DNA of 39,162 nucleotides from Pseudomonadota bacterium (lineage in GTDB: Bacteria > Pseudomonadota > Gammaproteobacteria > Pseudomonadales > JAHEIH01): contig JBEAQQ010000143.1 of the NCBI GenBank assembly GCA_041163785.1, positions 1 through 39,162 of the forward strand. The letters run 5' to 3'. The position numbers and the translations under genes were made by a program. Positions within the stretch are counted from its first letter, which is position 1. The number at the start of each line of letters is the position of its first letter. Shown piece by piece: positions 8,201 through 15,540 of this stretch. The notes beneath the pieces are model-generated. The model did not search any database. It was given only the letters and a program-made list of their open reading frames with translations, and was not told where the DNA came from.

Positions 8201-9072
8201 TGCCTACGACACCTTACCGGGGGCGATTTGCCCCCTCTCCCTCGGGCCCACTCCACCTAGGCTCACTGCTCGCTGCGACAGCCAGTTATTTAGACGCCAA
8301 AGCCAATCATGGCGAATGGCTTGTGCGCATTGAAGATATCGATCCACCACGCGAACAACCCGGCGCCAGCGACACCATATTATCTACCCTTCTGGCCCAC
8401 GGCCTGCAGTGGGATGGCGAAGTCATGTACCAAAGTGCTCGATCAGCGGCGTACGACGCTGTACTTGACGAACTGTGGCGACGCGAAGAACTTTTTTACT
8501 GCACCTGCACACGCGCCGATCTGCAGGGTAGCCGGTCCTACCCTGGCAAGTGCCGCCAGCAACTCACACCCCCAACAGTACCCGCCGCGTGGCGACTGCG
8601 CTGCGACAACAGCACGCAAGCTTGGCAGGACGGATTTCAAGGGCCGCAATCATGGTCAATGCGAGATATTGGCGACACCATACTTAAACGCAAAGACGGC
8701 CTTTACGCCTATCAGCTCGCGGTAGTGGTCGACGATCACGCGCAAGGTATTACACACGTGGTGCGTGGCATCGACCTCATCGATAGCACGCCAAGACAGC
8801 TTTACCTGTTTGCACAATTGCATTGGTCGCCCCCCCAATACAGCCATCTCCCGGTTATTTTAGACGAACACGGCCACAAGCTAAGCAAACAAAATCACGC
8901 TCCAGCCGTTGACGACACGCAGGCGACTGCCAACTTACTGCAATGCCTCGGATGGCTGGGACAGGCACAACCTACCCACCTTAATCACCCCGCCGATATT
9001 TTAGCCTACGCGGTAGAACACTGGCAGCCATCACGCCTACAGGGCGTTCACGATATCGCACTCGCCGAGTGA
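8200..9072 (+). CDS. gluQ: tRNA glutamyl-Q(34) synthetase GluQRS
   Basis: RFAPSPSGPLHLGS, RIEDID, CxC..Y...C zinc site, KLSKQ; no anticodon domain. GTG overlaps the dksA stop (TAGTG). Confidence 0.95.
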   Translation: MPTTPYRGRFAPSPSGPLHLGSLLAATASYLDAKANHGEWLVRIEDIDPPREQPGASDTILSTLLAHGLQWDGEVMYQSARSAAYDAVLDELWRREELFYCTCTRADLQGSRSYPGKCRQQLTPPTVPAAWRLRCDNSTQAWQDGFQGPQSWSMRDIGDTILKRKDGLYAYQLAVVVDDHAQGITHVVRGIDLIDSTPRQLYLFAQLHWSPPQYSHLPVILDEHGHKLSKQNHAPAVDDTQATANLLQCLGWLGQAQPTHLNHPADILAYAVEHWQPSRLQGVHDIALAE

Positions 9073-9107
9073 CTAGTATAAAATGGCCGACCACATGCGA
9101 GGTCGCC

Positions 9108-9293
9108 GTGCTAATACACCGAAGTACCATTTTGATCATTCTTGCTCTACTCCTTATGGCGCCGCTGCTTCGCGACTGGGTCATGACGGGCGGCGCCGCT
9201 TGGTATCGGCTGTTTGTAGTGTGGCTATTCATCATTTTGCTACTGACATGGAACCAGCGTCTCATTAAACGTCGAGGTCAACCACGTGCTTAG
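9108..9293 (+). CDS. cbrX: Small two-TM membrane peptide, CbrX-like (61 aa)
   Basis: GAGG SD then GTG at 9108; sequence (M)LIHRSTILIILALLLMAPLLRDWVMTGGAAWYRLFVVWLFII... with a P...DW...AWYR...W pattern like pseudomonad CbrX (from memory). Overlaps the cbrA start by 8 nt. Confidence 0.75.
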   Translation: MLIHRSTILIILALLLMAPLLRDWVMTGGAAWYRLFVVWLFIILLLTWNQRLIKRRGQPRA

Positions 9294-12204
9294 CGCCGGC
9301 ATTTTGCTGATTATTGCACTGCTATTTTTTGCGGCCTGGTTTGGGCTGTCCGCACTGATCGACATTAAAAAATACTGGCAAGACTTGACCAGAAAACCTG
9401 CCGCGTACCACATTTCGCTTGGCATTGTTGGCAGCGCCTGGACCTTCTTCGCCATGACCAATCTCGTACAGGACTATGGCATATCAGCCTTTTCCTACTA
9501 CATTGGTATCAGCGCTGTCTTCCTCAGCGCCCCCTTACTACTGCTTCCCCTTCTCCAACTGTGCCGTCGCTATCAGCTAACGTCCCTGGCCGACCTCATG
9601 AGCTTTCGCTATCGCAGCCCGCTCGCCGGCACCGTGACAGCACTACTACTGATTATCGCGTCCCTACCCTTTTATGCCTTGCAATTAGAAACACTGGCCG
9701 ACGCCGCTAATCAAATCATGGCAAGTGACAACAATACGCGCCCCTACTGGTTGACCACTATTTTTATTGCGTTCTGTGCGGTGAGCGCGCTGCAGCTCTC
9801 TACTCGGCAAAACACCAACACCCAACGCCATCAAAACCTTATTGCCCTGATCGCTTTTAGCACCCTATTAAAAGTCATCGCGTTGTTAACCCTTGGCGCC
9901 TTTGCCATCTGGGGCGTCTTTGGCGGCTTAGATGATCTGACGCAATGGCTCAACGCCCATCCAGATCATTTGCAGCGCTTCTATGAACCCAGTATTACAC
10001 CTTCGTATCAAATCTTGGTGATGATCTTCTTCGCCAGTATGATTGGTATGCCACACCTTTTTCACATGACCTTTGCCGGCGCCACCGCCAGTGGTCGTCG
10101 CTTTGAAAATGCCCGTTGGGCACTACCTATGCTACTCCTTGTCATGTCTCTACCGGTGCTACCCACACTCTGGGCGAGCCTATCGCTAGATGCCAATAGC
10201 CAGGGATTTGCGGCTATTTCGATGGCCATTAATAGCAGAGCCAACTGGCTCAATGCCATTACCTTTGTGGGCGGATTAGCGGCAGCGGCGGGTATTCTCG
10301 TCGTGCTCAACCTGGCATTGTCTACCATGCTGGTGAACCATGTGCTTCTCCGCTTCGCTCCCCTCAACCCCTCGCAGAATATCTATCAAAAGCTCAATGT
10401 GATGCGACGCGCCAGCATCGTCGCCATTGCCTGCCTAGGGCTCATCTTGTTTGTTGTGATGAATGACCCGCAAAAAGTGCAAGGCTTTGCTCTTCTTAGC
10501 TTTGCGGCAAGTTTGCAGTTTCTTCCGGGGTGCATTGCCCTTTTGTATTGGCGCGGCGCCACCCGCGAAGGCTTTTTAGCTGGATTATTTGCGGGCTTCA
10601 CCGTGTGGATGCTGTTTGCCTTCTTCCCCGATGGGGTACTGACTGGTCTCGATGGCAATCGTCAGTGGTTCACCCTCAAACTCGACGTCTCGTCTAATAT
10701 TTGGGCCTTGAGCGCTGCGGCTAGCATCATGAGTAATGTCATTGCATTGCTGTTGGTCTCTTGGCTAAGCACCATGCGACCCGAGGAGCGACGCGTCGCC
10801 CTGGCCTGCGTTCTCAACACTGCCAACCAAAGCGAACAGCACCATTTTGAAACCCATAGCGCCGCCGATATTGCCCAACGCTTAGCGCCCACACTTGGCG
10901 AAACACCGGCCAAAAAAGAAGTTAAGCGCGCCCTGCATCAAATTAAGGCTCCGTGGGGTAACCTTTCCGACGCACAGGTTTCTCAGCTTATTGTCGCTTT
11001 GCGCATCAACCTCACCCAACTACTGGGCCCTGTGTTAGCACAACAAACCCTCAGCAACGCCCTGCCCTTCGATGACGATGTCGAGGGCGATATCGTCTAC
11101 CTTGAAAATCAACTGGAAGCAGTGCAAACCAAGCTACAAGGCGTGACAGGGGAATTGCGCACCATGCGCGCCAACTATCAGTCCATGCTACTCGAATTGC
11201 CCATCGGCGCACTGACCTACGACAAGCAATTGATTATCTCTAGCTGGAATCGCACCATCGCTGATATCACGGGTATTGACCAGCAGCACGCACTGCGCCA
11301 ACCGCTCGCCTCGCTTGCTGCACCATGGGGCGACTTGTTGGCAGAATTTGCGTCAGGCACAGCGCGCCACGCCTACAAAAGGCCCATCGGTGATGCCCGC
11401 TGGATCAACCTCCACAAAGCAGCGGTTGAACGCCATACCTCGTCTTCGCAGGACGAGCAATTTTTGCTCATTGAAGACATCAGCGAAACGCAGACTCTTG
11501 AGCGAGAACTCATTCATAGCGAACGCCTTGCCTCGATCGGCCGACTAGCCGCCGGTGTAGCACACGAAATTGGCAACCCTATCACCGGCATAGCCTGCCT
11601 TGCGCAAAACCTCGACTTCGATATGCAAGAAGGTAACGCCAGCGACACTGCCAAAGAAATTCTGGTGCAAACCGATAGAGTAAACACCATTGTCCGCAGT
11701 CTGATGAACTTTGCTCACGGCGACAATTACGTGGGTAATTTCGATGATAAAGGCCGTGCGGACGTCGCTTTTTGCTGCCGAGAGGCCACCAAGCTTCTCG
11801 CCCTAGATAAAGAGAAAACTCAGGTCACCTTCGCGCTTTCTCCTATTGAAGGTATGACCGCCGCTATCGATCCACAACGTTTAATTCAATTGCTCATCAA
11901 TCTACTAAGCAATGCTCGCGACGCCTCTGAACCAGGGCAGACAATCCAAATCGACGCCTTGCAAAGACACGATGTTGTTCAAATAGAAGTCATTGATGAA
12001 GGTCAGGGCATCCCCCTGGAACAACAGGAAAAAATCTTTGAGCCCTTCTTCACCACCAAAGAGCCTGGCAGCGGCACCGGCTTAGGTTTGTCGCTGGTGT
12101 ATTCCATTGTAGAACAGCACAGCGGATCGATTGCCGTGCAGAGTCCAGTACCGACGACAGGGCGCGGCACACGCATCGTTCTTACCCTACCTAGCTCCAG
12201 CTAG
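9286..12204 (+). CDS. cbrA: CbrA sensor: SLC5/PutP-like transporter domain + STAC + PAS + histidine kinase
   Basis: About 500 aa polytopic N-terminus (SLADLMSFRYRS, MPHLFH); PAS-like segment; H-box AAGVAHEIGNP, N-box NLLSNARDA, DEGQG, FEPFFTTK, GTGLGL; canonical position between gluQ and cbrB. Confidence 0.9.
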   Translation: MLSAGILLIIALLFFAAWFGLSALIDIKKYWQDLTRKPAAYHISLGIVGSAWTFFAMTNLVQDYGISAFSYYIGISAVFLSAPLLLLPLLQLCRRYQLTSLADLMSFRYRSPLAGTVTALLLIIASLPFYALQLETLADAANQIMASDNNTRPYWLTTIFIAFCAVSALQLSTRQNTNTQRHQNLIALIAFSTLLKVIALLTLGAFAIWGVFGGLDDLTQWLNAHPDHLQRFYEPSITPSYQILVMIFFASMIGMPHLFHMTFAGATASGRRFENARWALPMLLLVMSLPVLPTLWASLSLDANSQGFAAISMAINSRANWLNAITFVGGLAAAAGILVVLNLALSTMLVNHVLLRFAPLNPSQNIYQKLNVMRRASIVAIACLGLILFVVMNDPQKVQGFALLSFAASLQFLPGCIALLYWRGATREGFLAGLFAGFTVWMLFAFFPDGVLTGLDGNRQWFTLKLDVSSNIWALSAAASIMSNVIALLLVSWLSTMRPEERRVALACVLNTANQSEQHHFETHSAADIAQRLAPTLGETPAKKEVKRALHQIKAPWGNLSDAQVSQLIVALRINLTQLLGPVLAQQTLSNALPFDDDVEGDIVYLENQLEAVQTKLQGVTGELRTMRANYQSMLLELPIGALTYDKQLIISSWNRTIADITGIDQQHALRQPLASLAAPWGDLLAEFASGTARHAYKRPIGDARWINLHKAAVERHTSSSQDEQFLLIEDISETQTLERELIHSERLASIGRLAAGVAHEIGNPITGIACLAQNLDFDMQEGNASDTAKEILVQTDRVNTIVRSLMNFAHGDNYVGNFDDKGRADVAFCCREATKLLALDKEKTQVTFALSPIEGMTAAIDPQRLIQLLINLLSNARDASEPGQTIQIDALQRHDVVQIEVIDEGQGIPLEQQEKIFEPFFTTKEPGSGTGLGLSLVYSIVEQHSGSIAVQSPVPTTGRGTRIVLTLPSSS

Positions 12205-12294: not shown

Positions 12295-13713
12295 ATGCAA
12301 AACATTCTTATTGTCGAAGACGAACAAGTTATCAGAACGGCTTTGCGCCGCTTATTGGAGCGTCACGATTACAGCATTAGCGAAGCAATCAGTGTGCTCG
12401 AGGCCTGCGAGTACGAACTAGACAGCTTTGACCTGATTATTAGCGACCTACGGTTACCCGGCGCGCCTGGTACTGACCTTATCAAACTTGCCAAGTCAAC
12501 CCCCGTCCTCATCATGACTAGCTATGCCAGCCTTCGCTCGGCGGTTGACTCCATGCAAAAAGGCGCGGTGGACTATATCGCCAAACCCTTTGATCACGAT
12601 GAAATGCTGCGCGCTGTAAAACGCATCATTAACGACAACCCTGTGTCGGATCGCCAGGTGCGTGCCGCCACTAAAAATAACCGCCAGTTCGGCATGATTG
12701 GCAGTTGCTCCGCCATGCTCACGGTTTACGAATACCTTAGCAAAGTAGCCCCCACCAATGCGTCCGTGTTAATTCACGGCGAAACAGGCACAGGTAAAGA
12801 GCGCGTGGCTCAGGCCATTCACACAGCGAGTCAACGCAGCGATAAAGACATGATATCGGTGAACTGTGCCGCCATCCCTGAGTCATTGATCGAGTCCGAA
12901 CTGTTCGGCTATGAAAAGGGCGCCTTCACCGGCGCACAAACGTCGCGCATCGGTCTCATTGAGGCCGCCGACGGTAGTACGCTGTTTTTGGATGAAATTG
13001 GCGAGCTTCCCCTCGAAGCCCAAGCCCGGCTCCTTCGCTTTATTCAGGAGGGCGAAATTCGCGCCATCGGTTCGGTACAGTCACGCAAAGTTGATGTGCG
13101 CCTGTTGACGGCGACCCACCGCGATCTTAAAAAATTAATTGCCGCCGGCAAGTTCCGTGAAGACTTGTACTACCGTATCAACGTTATGCAAATCAATGTC
13201 CCACCGCTGCGCGAGCGCGGCCGAGACATCCTTGAAATTGCGGAAACCCTGCTTGAGCAGATTAGCCAAAACATGGGGCGCCCGGGGAAATACTTCTCAC
13301 CTCGCGCCATCCAGGCCATTACCACCTACGCGTGGCCAGGTAACGTACGCGAGATGGAAAATGCCATTCAGCGCGCCGTCATCCTCAGTGAATCTGAAGA
13401 AATCGACAACGATGTCTTCAATATCGATCTGGAATTGGTCAATCTGAACCGCTTGCGAGACGACCTCGACGACGATGAAGATCTCAGCAACCCCTATTCC
13501 GCGGCCGCACAACGCACCGGTAGCCTAACCGAAGACCCCGCTGAAGACCTATCTTTAGAAGATTATTTCCACCGTTTCGTATTAGAAAACCAAGACCGCA
13601 TGAACGAAACCGAGCTTGCCAAAAAACTAGGCGTGAGTCGCAAGTGCCTGTGGGAGCGACGCCAACGGCTAGGCATTCCGCGACGCAAAAGCAAAAGCGC
13701 CAAAGTAGATTAA
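12295..13713 (+). CDS. cbrB: Sigma54-dependent response regulator CbrB
   Basis: REC domain (VEDE, SDLRLPG), Walker A GETGTGKE, GAFTGA, and CbrB-typical C-terminus LSLEDYF..FVLE.Q..M.ETELAKKLGVSRKCLWERRQRLGIPR. Confidence 0.93.
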   Translation: MQNILIVEDEQVIRTALRRLLERHDYSISEAISVLEACEYELDSFDLIISDLRLPGAPGTDLIKLAKSTPVLIMTSYASLRSAVDSMQKGAVDYIAKPFDHDEMLRAVKRIINDNPVSDRQVRAATKNNRQFGMIGSCSAMLTVYEYLSKVAPTNASVLIHGETGTGKERVAQAIHTASQRSDKDMISVNCAAIPESLIESELFGYEKGAFTGAQTSRIGLIEAADGSTLFLDEIGELPLEAQARLLRFIQEGEIRAIGSVQSRKVDVRLLTATHRDLKKLIAAGKFREDLYYRINVMQINVPPLRERGRDILEIAETLLEQISQNMGRPGKYFSPRAIQAITTYAWPGNVREMENAIQRAVILSESEEIDNDVFNIDLELVNLNRLRDDLDDDEDLSNPYSAAAQRTGSLTEDPAEDLSLEDYFHRFVLENQDRMNETELAKKLGVSRKCLWERRQRLGIPRRKSKSAKVD

Positions 13714-13740: not shown

Positions 13741-13822
13741 TGTTACCCATAGAAATGTTACCGGCCACTCATTGCACAAAAGTGTTTCCTTTGGAATGAT
13801 TTTTTCGTGCAATTTAGTAACA
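13741..13822. promoter_or_regulatory. Putative CbrB enhancer (three TGTTAC subsites)
   Basis: TGTTAC at 13741-46 and 13756-61, inverted GTAACA at 13817-22; about 100-180 nt upstream of the sigma54 start. Confidence 0.75.
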
Positions 13823-13875
13823 CTTGCAACTAAAAACCCACTCAAAATCTCCATTAAAATTTTTATTTTATTAAA

Positions 13876-13888
13876 AATCAAATATTTA
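13876..13888 (+). promoter_or_regulatory. IHF binding site
   Basis: AATCAAATATTTA is an exact WATCAANNNNTTR match, preceded by an A/T tract, and lies between the enhancer and the -24 element. Confidence 0.75.
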
Positions 13889-13895
13889 CAAAAGT

Positions 13896-13911
13896 TGGCA
13901 CGGTACCTGCT
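13896..13911 (+). promoter_or_regulatory. Sigma54 (-24/-12) promoter
   Basis: TGGCACGGTACCTGCT with GG (13897-98) N10 GC (13909-10); predicted +1 near 13922. Confidence 0.88.
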
Positions 13912-13921
13912 GTTATACCGC

Positions 13922-14045
13922 CAATAAAAATAATAATTAGTAATAAAAATAAGAACGTTTAGTAATAAAAATAAATAAGAATTAGCAAAGTCTAATAAAA
14001 ATAATACAGAGACCTGGGTGGGGAAGCGAAGCTTCCCTTTCGTTT
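13922..14045 (+). ncRNA. crcZ: Compact CrcZ-like Hfq/Crc-titrating small RNA
   Basis: Located between cbrB and pcnB, like crcZ; sigma54 promoter; four AATAAAAATAA copies at 13923, 13942, 13964 and 13994; 3' hairpin; no ORF. Confidence 0.8.
14021..14045 (+). terminator. Putative intrinsic terminator of the sRNA
   Basis: GGGAAGC-GAA-GCTTCCC followed by TTTCGTTT; a possible outer stem pairs 14009-19 with 14046-56. Confidence 0.7.
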
Positions 14046-14106
14046 ATCTGGGCCTCGTGTTTCTCACTATACGCCTGCTTAAAATCTCATCAATGCTATT
14101 CATGGA

Positions 14107-14135
14107 TAGATACTTGGCGCCAATTCCTCTACTAT
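14107..14135 (+). promoter_or_regulatory. Possible sigma70 promoter for pcnB
   Basis: TAGATA-17 bp-TACTAT. Confidence 0.35.
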
Positions 14136-14187
14136 TGTGCCCAACCATGGAGAACACTCGGCATTTGCCCTGGAGTAACAATAGCCA

Positions 14188-15540
14188 ATGAGACGCTGGC
14201 TCAAAAAGAAACTAAACGCCTTGACCAAATCACCGACCAAGAAAGTTATCATTCCGCGCGATGAACACGACATATCCCGCAGCAACATTAGCCGCGGCGC
14301 ACAAGCGGTCATTAAAAAATTACAAGCTTCTGGCTATCAGGCCTACTTAGTAGGCGGCGGAGTTCGTGACCTGCAACTAGGCGGCCACCCCAAGGACTTT
14401 GATGTCGCCACCGACGCCAAACCAGAACAAGTACACGTACTGTTTAAAGGCTCTCGCATTGTAGGACGGCGCTTTAGGATTGTACACGTCAGGCAAGGCC
14501 GCGAAATCATCGAGGTGACTACATTCCGCGGTAGCCACGATCAAGACGACAATCTCGGCAAAAACCAGTCACGCCAAAGCGATAGCGGCATGTTGCTGCG
14601 CGACAACGTGTTCGGTACTGTTGAGGAAGACGCCATTCGCCGAGACTTTACCGTCAACGCACTGTATTACGACCCCCAGGATTTCACTATCCACGACTAC
14701 ACCGGCGGACTAGGTGACCTACACGACGGCATCTTGCGCATGATCGGCGACCCCGAGACGCGCTACCGTGAGGATCCCGTTCGCATGCTTCGCGCGGCAC
14801 GCTTTGCCGCCAAACTCAACTTTACTATCGCACCGGAAACTGAGGCCCCCATCGAATCGCTTGCCAACCTGATCGACAGCGTTTCTTCGGCACGCCTATT
14901 TGATGAAATGCTGAAGCTGTTTCAATCTGGCTACGGCGAACGAACCTTCTATCAGTTGCGCAGACTCGGACTCTACAAGCATCTCTTTGCACAAACAGAA
15001 TGGGCATTGGCCCACAGCAAAGACAGCGAGATGTACCACGCCATGATCGTGCAGGCCCTAAAAAATACCGATGCACGTATCGCCCAGGAAAAATCGGTCA
15101 CGCCCGCGTTTATTATCGCCGCCATGCTCTGGCCCCCACTGCAAGAGTCCACCGCCAAACTTTCAAAGAGCATGAAACCCCAAGATGCGTATGCACAAGC
15201 CTGCCAACAAGTCATTGGTGGGCAATTGGGACAGATCAGCATTCCTAAACGCTTTACTATCACTGTGCGTGAGATTTGGGATCTACAATTCCGTCTTCCC
15301 AATATCCAGGGCAAACGCCCAGAGCGCACTGCCGCCCACCCAAGATTCCGCGCCGCGTATGACTTTTTACTGCTACGCGAATCAGCTGGAGAAAACACCG
15401 GGAATTTGGGTGCCTGGTGGACAGATTATCAGCGCGACAATCCACTACCCAGCCCTTCGCAACATGAACATCACAGCGAAAATCGGAATGAGGAACACCG
15501 TCGCCCCCCTCGCCGTCGCCGTCGTCGCCCGCAACACTAA
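14188..15540 (+). CDS. pcnB: Poly(A) polymerase I
   Basis: LVGGGVRD..KDFDVAT, PAP signature RIVGRRFRIVHV, RRDFTVNAL, EDPVRMLRA, HPRFRAAYDFL, Arg-rich tail. Confidence 0.96.
   Translation: MRRWLKKKLNALTKSPTKKVIIPRDEHDISRSNISRGAQAVIKKLQASGYQAYLVGGGVRDLQLGGHPKDFDVATDAKPEQVHVLFKGSRIVGRRFRIVHVRQGREIIEVTTFRGSHDQDDNLGKNQSRQSDSGMLLRDNVFGTVEEDAIRRDFTVNALYYDPQDFTIHDYTGGLGDLHDGILRMIGDPETRYREDPVRMLRAARFAAKLNFTIAPETEAPIESLANLIDSVSSARLFDEMLKLFQSGYGERTFYQLRRLGLYKHLFAQTEWALAHSKDSEMYHAMIVQALKNTDARIAQEKSVTPAFIIAAMLWPPLQESTAKLSKSMKPQDAYAQACQQVIGGQLGQISIPKRFTITVREIWDLQFRLPNIQGKRPERTAAHPRFRAAYDFLLLRESAGENTGNLGAWWTDYQRDNPLPSPSQHEHHSENRNEEHRRPPRRRRRRPQH

Follow-up and report, generated by a model that had tools for sequence, protein, structure and literature searches.

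A candidate compact CrcZ-like small RNA between cbrB and pcnB in an uncultured Pseudomonadales lineage

Locus Organization and Anatomy of the Predicted RNA

The window analyzed here, a DNA stretch of 39,162 nt, is one contig (C143) of the 274-contig assembly G000 (2.1 Mb; completeness 91.6%). It carries a cbrX-like open reading frame (ORF), cbrA, cbrB, a putative small RNA (sRNA) element, pcnB, folK, a kinase gene and panB, in this order. As annotated, the order is the cbrA–cbrB–crcZ–pcnB arrangement of Pseudomonas, and the element separates cbrB from pcnB and shares their orientation. A first-pass annotation of the window, prepared from the sequence without database searches, had already placed the element in the cbrB–pcnB interval; the structure match of CbrA, the sigma-54-dependent response regulator and pcnB bear this out. 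We interpret the element as an sRNA driven by CbrB and sigma-54 that would titrate Hfq, possibly together with Crc, and thus as a probable compact variant of CrcZ outside Pseudomonadaceae; we put the probability of this interpretation at roughly 0.78. The coordinates of all features are collected in Table 1.

Table 1. Annotated and predicted features of the cbrA–pcnB region (window coordinates).
Feature	Coordinates	Strand	Description
cbrX-like small ORF	9069..9293	+	74 codons, two hydrophobic segments; stop codon overlaps the GTG start of cbrA by 8 nt
cbrA	9286..12204	+	972 amino acids; SLC5-STAC transporter domain fused to PAS and histidine kinase
cbrB	12295..13713	+	sigma-54-dependent response regulator, 472 amino acids; REC, Sigma54_activat and AAA lid domains
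Upstream activating region, CbrB-box half-sites	13742..13823	+	TGTTAC at 13742 and 13757, GTAACA at 13818
IHF-consensus match	13876..13888	+	pattern match
Sigma-54 −24/−12 promoter element TGGCACGGTACCTGCT	13896..13911	+	TGGCAC-N5-CTGCT; pattern match
Predicted sRNA	13923..14048	+	~125 nt; predicted start from promoter offset, predicted end from terminator tail
A-R-N block 1	13923..13937	+	5 triplets
A-R-N block 2	13939..13956	+	6 triplets, 18 nt
A-R-N block 3	13961..13982	+	5 triplets, then 3 in shifted frame
A-R-N block 4	13994..14005	+	4 triplets
Near-invariant element GAGACCUGGGU	14009..14019	+	predicted single-stranded; GAGACCUGGRU across families
8-bp terminator hairpin	14020..14038	+	14020–14027 pairs with 14031–14038, loop 14028–14030; terminator scan
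U-rich tail TTCGTTTATC	14039..14051	+	ends in UCUGG; within R2 match 13989–14051
pcnB, poly(A) polymerase	14188..15540	+	TIGR01942, 502 bits; downstream neighbor

The sigma-54 element preceding the predicted RNA is the sole match to the sigma-54 pattern in the window, with 0.23 expected. In the canonical CrcZ locus L038, the distance from TGGCAC to the 5′ end of the Rfam CrcZ match is 27 nt; the same offset applied here sets the predicted start at 13923, the first base of A-R-N block 1.

The body of the predicted RNA is built around repeats of the 11-mer AATAAAAATAA, which occurs exactly four times in the window, always on the plus strand (13923, 13942, 13964 and 13994), and nowhere else in it on either strand; the 11-mer was absent from all 100 dinucleotide shuffles. 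Copies 2 and 3 are embedded in identical 16-mers TTAGTAATAAAAATAA (13937–13952 and 13959–13974). The 87 nt between 13922 and 14008 comprise 53 A, 22 T, 7 G and 5 C, i.e., 86% A+T. The four A-R-N blocks of 4–6 triplets are packed in 83 nt (13923–14005) and represent the several A-rich motifs (AAnAAnAA or A-R-N repeats) characteristic of CrcZ. Block 2, at exactly 18 nt, is long enough to occupy each of the six pockets on the distal face of an Hfq hexamer. On both strands of the 2.1-Mb assembly, this is the sole cluster with at least three (A-R-N)x4-or-longer runs per 150 nt.

The near-invariant element that follows the last block is predicted to be unpaired both in the single-sequence fold and in the genus consensus fold. 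The adjoining hairpin is the only robust structure in the former (minimum free energy −19.2 kcal/mol, z −2.0), and RNAalifold applied to five sequences of the genus returned neither structure beyond the terminator region nor covariation at that depth. The predicted 3′ end has the parts of an intrinsic terminator, namely a GC-rich hairpin with conserved pairing and a U-run, the latter imperfect.

Most of this anatomy had been anticipated by the first-pass annotation. It described a sigma-54 promoter immediately followed by about 85 nt of almost pure A/T with four exact motif copies, the second and third extended, and the positions, the 16-mers and the base composition given above all agree with it. 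Its hairpin and U-rich run after the A-rich tract were recovered by the terminator scan at 14020–14048, and its notion of a nearly unstructured RNA of about 125 nt fits a predicted transcript of that length with one hairpin only in its fold. The use of AAU rather than AAC that it also noted is no trait of the family, since congeners have AAUAACAAUAA at the same positions.

These congeners are the four other species of the host genus, which is the sole genus of the host family (f1) in our collection. Across the genus alignment the positions of the A-R-N blocks are kept, the substitutions observed replace A with C at the N position (AAUAAAAAUAA to AAUAACAAUAA), and the spacers vary freely. Two congeners (L002 and L004) carry a 19-nt insertion opposite 13983–13993 that adds a fifth A-R-N block, so the number of blocks varies within the genus. 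A 4-bp stem around block 2 was spotted by eye in four congeners; it is not formed in the window sequence.

A tract of this composition could also be non-functional AT-rich intergenic DNA, with repeats produced by slippage or duplication, or a bent-DNA or UP-like element serving the neighboring promoters. The tract is of low complexity, its two identical 16-mers point to a local duplication of recent date, and the sigma-54 match is not significant when taken alone. However, the changes seen within the genus keep the A-R-N phase, no other such A-R-N cluster exists in the genome, and the position relative to the sigma-54 promoter and to a covarying hairpin is conserved in 16 families, all of which makes this explanation very unlikely.

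A Conserved Family of Predicted Short RNAs Upstream of pcnB

Loci containing pcnB were gathered from 29 relatives and the own genome and brought into one orientation. A sigma-54 pattern followed by A-rich motifs precedes pcnB in 26 of these 30 loci. A short form resembling that of the window, with about 70–150 nt between the inferred start and the hairpin, 2–5 A-R-N blocks, and GAGACCUGGRU placed just before a GGGGA-type hairpin, is present in 14 of the 30 loci, corresponding to 10 of 26 families; the loci of other families hold forms of 250–400 nt or other variants. Anatomy was additionally inspected in 46 of 80 loci from named records, all 80 of which entered the promoter scan described below. 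Here the short form was found in Oceanicoccus and Dasania (two tandem copies each), three Zhongshania, Spongiibacter marinus and several uncultured Cellvibrionales, and longer forms in Gilvimarinus, Microbulbifer, Marinimicrobium, Pseudomaricurvus and Pseudomonas.

A covariance model of the 3′ module of the host genus (R1) recovered the module in other families, and a second model (R2) was rebuilt from 24 R1 matches. Order-wide searches covered 151 sampled genomes from 58 families of the GTDB order to which the host belongs; at least 58 families were counted in that order. In the own genome R2 has exactly one match (13989–14051, 74 bits). Across the sample it matches 43 of 151 genomes and 16 of 58 families (f1, f3, f4, f7, f12, f17, f18, f24, f29, f34, f36, f37, f39, f40, f41 and f53), and it gave no match in f25 (0/3 genomes) or f5 (0/4 genomes). 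Wherever the position of pcnB was known in a matching genome, an R2 match lies directly upstream of it (15/15). Building such a model from the cbrB–pcnB intervals of relatives was a check proposed by the first-pass annotation, and a conserved short form is what it yielded; the accompanying suggestion that the element may define a new sRNA family is likewise in line with a motif cluster conserved in relatives as a distinct short family.

Copy number and architecture vary within the order. Some families have two or three tandem short copies (L007, L008, L016, L048, L050 and L051), each with CbrB boxes and a sigma-54 promoter, and two f4 genomes (G007 and G063) yield 4–6 R2 matches, including unlinked copies. 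Another compact variant of about 95 nt is found at 739–850 of L017 (G013); it combines a sigma-54 promoter and A-rich blocks with a GC hairpin and a T-run and lacks the GAGACCUGG element, which suggests that shortening happened more than once. A quick PcnB tree of 30 rows leaves 17 of 27 inner branches open and carries long-branch warnings; the short form may be ancestral, as the first-pass annotation suggested, or derived.

The hairpin is supported by covariation. On a model-fitted alignment that includes one spurious partial row, 194 of 194 cells are paired and five of the eight pairs are changed on both sides; the covariation score was reached by none of 500 shuffles, and slid controls scored far lower.

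The position and orientation of the element also raise the possibility of a cis-acting pcnB leader or attenuator, in which pcnB would depend on the sigma-54 promoter, with the A-rich tract and hairpin governing read-through, for example via Hfq, and no free sRNA would be made. The element indeed precedes pcnB by 140 nt in the same orientation; its hairpin is followed by an imperfect U-tract here and, in several relatives, by a tail that lacks U-richness; and in the own genome an ORF opening with the GUG at the foot of the hairpin terminates within an ATGA that it shares with the start of pcnB. However, this ORF is not conserved within the genus (57, 53, 36, 53 and 20 codons), in several relatives the element is duplicated or triplicated in tandem 400–730 nt away from pcnB, each copy having its own promoter and hairpin, and two genomes hold unlinked copies as well. 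Moreover, a genus-conserved block between the hairpin and pcnB could hold a separate pcnB promoter, although the sigma-70 promoter scan did not flag it, and in the accessible text of PMC8871633 the canonical CrcZ, encoded at the same position between cbrB and pcnB, is a discrete sRNA. We therefore consider a leader function quite improbable.

GAGACCUGGRU is nearly invariant across the 16 families, with flanks and hairpin stem that vary. Together with its predicted unpaired state and its lack of conservation in Pseudomonadaceae CrcZ, this would suit a base-pairing or dual-function sRNA in which the motif serves as an mRNA seed or a dock for a second protein and the A-rich blocks mainly recruit Hfq as a chaperone. 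Complementary 10-mers, however, number about 20 in the own genome outside the locus versus 32 expected, none of them at an obvious start site, and four long A-R-N blocks would exceed what recruitment of a chaperone needs. As for a second protein, a GGA-type RsmA/CsrA site is unlikely, given that the triplet reads GGG in the own genus as well as in Zhongshania and Spongiibacter. On balance, a base-pairing or dual-function RNA appears unlikely.

The R-U-G that the end of the element forms with the first G of the stem is AUG or GUG in 31 of 34 instances (L001–L104; 14009–14022 in the window), with a purine-rich GAGA 5 nt upstream, as might be expected of a small protein translated from the hairpin base (57 codons here, 14018–14191, plus strand). 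This reading was rejected. The ORFs are anywhere between 4 and 65 codons long, except for one of 505 codons that continues into pcnB, and three instances lack a start codon. The shared residues mirror only the hairpin stem, where changes are compensatory at the RNA level, and the indels within the genus are not multiples of three; such a protein is accordingly extremely improbable. In Spongiibacter marinus (L093), the frame from the hairpin base runs on into pcnB.

Predicted Upstream Activating Sites

A scan for CbrB half-sites took in 114 sigma-54 promoters that precede A-rich sequence, each with its 220 nt of upstream DNA, and 5000 background windows. At least one TGTTAC or GTAACA half-site accompanies all 32 short-form promoters versus 11.9% of the background windows, and at least two accompany 30 of 32 versus 4.5%. 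Nine short-form promoters have TGTTAC at about −121 and GTAACA at about −100 and −79, which is near the CbrB consensus TGTTAC-N12-14-GTAACA-N15-19-GTAACA given in the accessible text of PMC8871633. GTAACA near −79 is common to most short-form promoters and is found in the window as well, where the TGTTAC half-sites lie at −155 and −140 relative to the promoter.

A match to the IHF consensus is present in 13 of 32 short-form promoters versus 93 of 5000 background windows (1.9%). Taken together, a sigma-54 promoter with upstream CbrB sites, as known from CrcZ, is predicted in the window.

Relation to CrcZ and Other Regulatory RNAs

At gathering thresholds, Rfam models returned nothing for the whole window. 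The best relaxed match in the interval is CrcZ (RF01675), with 18 bits versus a gathering threshold of 95 and an E-value of 0.011, which agrees with the first-pass expectation that standard CrcZ models may miss the element. The model aligns with about 50 nt at its 5′ end and 12 nt at its 3′ end, and 338 middle positions are deleted. Conversely, R2 matches the CrcZ 3′ ends of Pseudomonas and Stutzerimonas loci at 12–24 bits with the same layout. The short RNA therefore resembles the two ends of CrcZ with the structured middle left out. In two canonical CrcZ loci, the last A-rich motif is followed by about 15 nt of other sequence and a GGGGAGC hairpin, and the tail ends in CCGG in one of the two.

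In the order-wide sample, the CrcZ model reaches its gathering threshold in 7 of 151 genomes, exclusively in families f25 and f5, which we infer to include Pseudomonadaceae; it gave no match in the four own-genus genomes searched (0/4). The host had been suspected of being a non-pseudomonad, and its placement in f1 agrees with this, although f1 belongs to the same GTDB order as the two CrcZ-holding families.

The short RNA and CrcZ of Pseudomonas and Azotobacter share the location 3′ of cbrB and 5′ of pcnB, a sigma-54 promoter accompanied by CbrB boxes, several A-rich motifs in single-stranded sequence, a similar GGGGA-type terminator with UCUGG at the end of its tail, and a lineage encoding Hfq and Crc. 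They differ in length (about 125 nt versus about 400 nt, i.e., the third of canonical length that had been estimated from the sequence) and in the internal structured segments of CrcZ, which the short RNA with its one hairpin lacks. The GAGACCUGGRU element before the hairpin is a feature of the short family and is not conserved in Pseudomonadaceae CrcZ. In addition, the short RNA, unlike CrcZ, occurs in families without a described Cbr system.

CrcY and CrcX, the extra CrcZ paralogues of P. putida, P. syringae and Azotobacter, provide a parallel for multiple CbrB-driven copies, with up to six matches per genome in the short family. However, the own genome has a single copy, and the extra copies of relatives are mostly arranged in tandem at cbrB–pcnB rather than dispersed. 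A more distant analogy is offered by RsmY, RsmZ and CsrB, repeated-motif RNAs that sequester RsmA/CsrA and are switched on by a two-component system. The principle is the same, an RNA given over largely to repeated sites for a single RNA-binding protein, but these RNAs present GGA in hairpin loops, whereas the short RNA presents unstructured A-R-N sequence suited to the distal face of Hfq.

The accessible portions of PMC8871633 and PMC6296734 call CbrAB and CrcZ exclusive to Pseudomonadaceae. In the open-access literature searched, no CrcZ-like RNA or cbrB–pcnB sRNA is described outside Pseudomonas and Azotobacter, although subscription journals and supplements lay outside the search and a prior description is possible. 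The open-access publications found to treat cbrB, pcnB and an sRNA together concern Pseudomonas only, and a paper on Thalassolituus mentions the CbrA protein only.

Neighboring Genes and Protein Partners

Both halves of a Cbr system, the CbrA transceptor kinase and the CbrB sigma-54 activator, are encoded upstream of the element. Residues 2–596 of CbrA match PDB entry 10ED (E-value 5e-102), named CbrXA SLC5-STAC by its depositors; Pfam did not detect the SLC5 domain, and the PDB search provided the SLC5-STAC match instead. Domain search identified PAS, HisKA and HATPase_c in the C-terminal part. The small ORF preceding cbrA is likely the counterpart of cbrX, translationally coupled to cbrA. 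The accessible published descriptions report that cbrX and cbrA overlap and that CbrX is a membrane peptide.

Over its full length, CbrB is 63–68% identical to the sRNA-adjacent regulators of Pseudomonas and Cellvibrionales genomes. The nearest named CbrB record comes from an uncultured Pseudomonadales metagenome-assembled genome (90% identity), followed at 64–68% by those of Oceanicoccus, Marinimicrobium, Dasania, Gilvimarinus, Zhongshania, Spongiibacter, Microbulbifer and Pseudomaricurvus; Pseudomonas records show 63–64% identity. Downstream, between the sRNA terminator and pcnB, lies the genus-conserved block GATAGATACTT ... CTCTA-A/C-TATTGTGC (14100–14140, and the same region in L002–L005), which may hold a promoter of pcnB itself.

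An Hfq of 81 amino acids is encoded on contig C10. Its residues 1–72 are near-identical to a solved Hfq (133.7 bits), a chain that is also present in entry 8BVH together with a Crc chain. The matched region includes the stretch holding the distal-face residues Tyr25, Ile30 and Lys31, and an intact distal face is predicted.

The situation is different for Crc. Only two EEP-family genes were found in the own assembly, a true Xth and a gene for a 409-amino-acid protein, and no Crc-specific NCBIfam model matched the EEP-family proteins of the own genome, which were compared with PDB entries instead. By contrast, congener G004 encodes a 257-amino-acid protein between pyrE and rph whose best PDB match is Crc (4JG3; 201 bits, full length), and crc accompanies pyrE and rph in all four congeners (4/4). 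Similarly, rpoN was detected through Sigma54_DBD in 4/4 congeners. The genome search for crc and hfq recommended by the first-pass annotation thus succeeded in the assembly itself for hfq, and for crc in the congeners only. Judging from the congeners, the host organism probably has both crc and rpoN.

Weighing the Interpretation and Proposed Mechanism

Several observations weigh against the interpretation of the element as a CbrB-driven Hfq sponge. Its score lies below the Rfam threshold for CrcZ. The sigma-54 match is not significant alone, given that at least one match occurred in 18 of 100 shuffles; its weight comes from position and conservation and not from the match itself. The TGTTAC sites of the window are at −155/−140 and not at the usual position of about −121, and the site near −100 is degenerate. 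The composition of the alignment behind the hairpin covariation is a further weakness. The tail is moderately U-rich in the window and not U-rich in several relatives, which means that 3′ ends may form otherwise or that read-through into pcnB may occur.

The own assembly, in spite of its completeness of 91.6%, also gave no tblastn hit for pyrE, crc or rph and contains neither Sigma54_DBD nor Sigma54_CBD of RpoN. We read these absences as assembly gaps because the assembly is smaller (2.1 Mb versus 2.6–2.9 Mb for near-complete congener assemblies) and because the biosynthetic gene pyrE is lost alongside crc; it probably lacks more than its completeness value suggests.

Finally, two contigs of RNA-library run X1 (labelled freshwater metagenome, share 0.18) are identical to 13300–13608, the 3′ part of cbrB. 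They cover this portion of cbrB only, and the comparison skipped the repeats at 13922–13988, so it is silent on transcription of the sRNA. The match indicates that the sample contained this lineage or one almost identical to it, and is no proof of transcription.

Despite these points, the anatomy of the element, its synteny, its conservation in relatives, the covariation of its hairpin and the presence of Hfq favor the minimal Hfq sponge that had been proposed from the window sequence, and the following scheme can be put forward. Poor carbon supply would be sensed by CbrA/CbrB, and phosphorylated CbrB would bind the TGTTAC/GTAACA sites and activate the sigma-54 promoter at 13896–13911. Transcription would start at about 13923 and end at the hairpin and U-rich tail near 14048, releasing an RNA of about 125 nt. 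Its four single-stranded blocks of 4–6 A-R-N triplets represent the type of sequence bound by the distal face of Hfq, and an RNA body made of such blocks would therefore titrate Hfq and Hfq–Crc assemblies off the A-rich sites at ribosome-binding sites of catabolic mRNAs. In this way, catabolite repression would be lifted, as it is by CrcZ in Pseudomonas. Such an RNA would be functionally equivalent to CrcZ, yet would stand outside RF01675 by score and architecture.

A broader hypothesis holds that the short RNA is more than a shortened CrcZ, namely the common form of the Cbr-controlled Hfq sponge across marine and freshwater Pseudomonadales/Cellvibrionales, to which GAGACCUGGRUG gives a second function, either as a decoy translation-initiation region or as a docking site for an unknown protein. 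In the decoy version, the last A-R-N block, the purine-rich GAGA, a 5-nt spacer and the AUG/GUG at the hairpin base would mimic an initiation region, and the RNA would hold Hfq–Crc or the 30S subunit as a real target mRNA does. Both proposed roles of GAGACCUGGRU are speculative, and we regard this extended hypothesis as doubtful.

Biological Significance

The module formed by a cbrX-like ORF, cbrA, cbrB, the predicted sRNA and pcnB is present in the uncultured lineage studied here and extends to no fewer than 16 of the families sampled, with Hfq encoded in this genome and Crc in the congeners; Zhongshania, Spongiibacter, Dasania and Oceanicoccus are among its cultured carriers. Its predicted sRNA, a third or less of the length of CrcZ and unseen by the Rfam model, belongs to a family that is conserved beyond the taxa to which the Cbr system is said to be restricted. 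With four blocks in about 83 nt, it is a candidate natural minimal Hfq/Crc sponge that would suit stoichiometric and structural work, and its conserved 11-nt element has a testable role. The covariance model can be used to annotate the RNA in environmental genomes. Altogether, these findings suggest that carbon catabolite control of the Cbr/Crc type is at work in bacteria of ecological importance that degrade polysaccharides and hydrocarbons.

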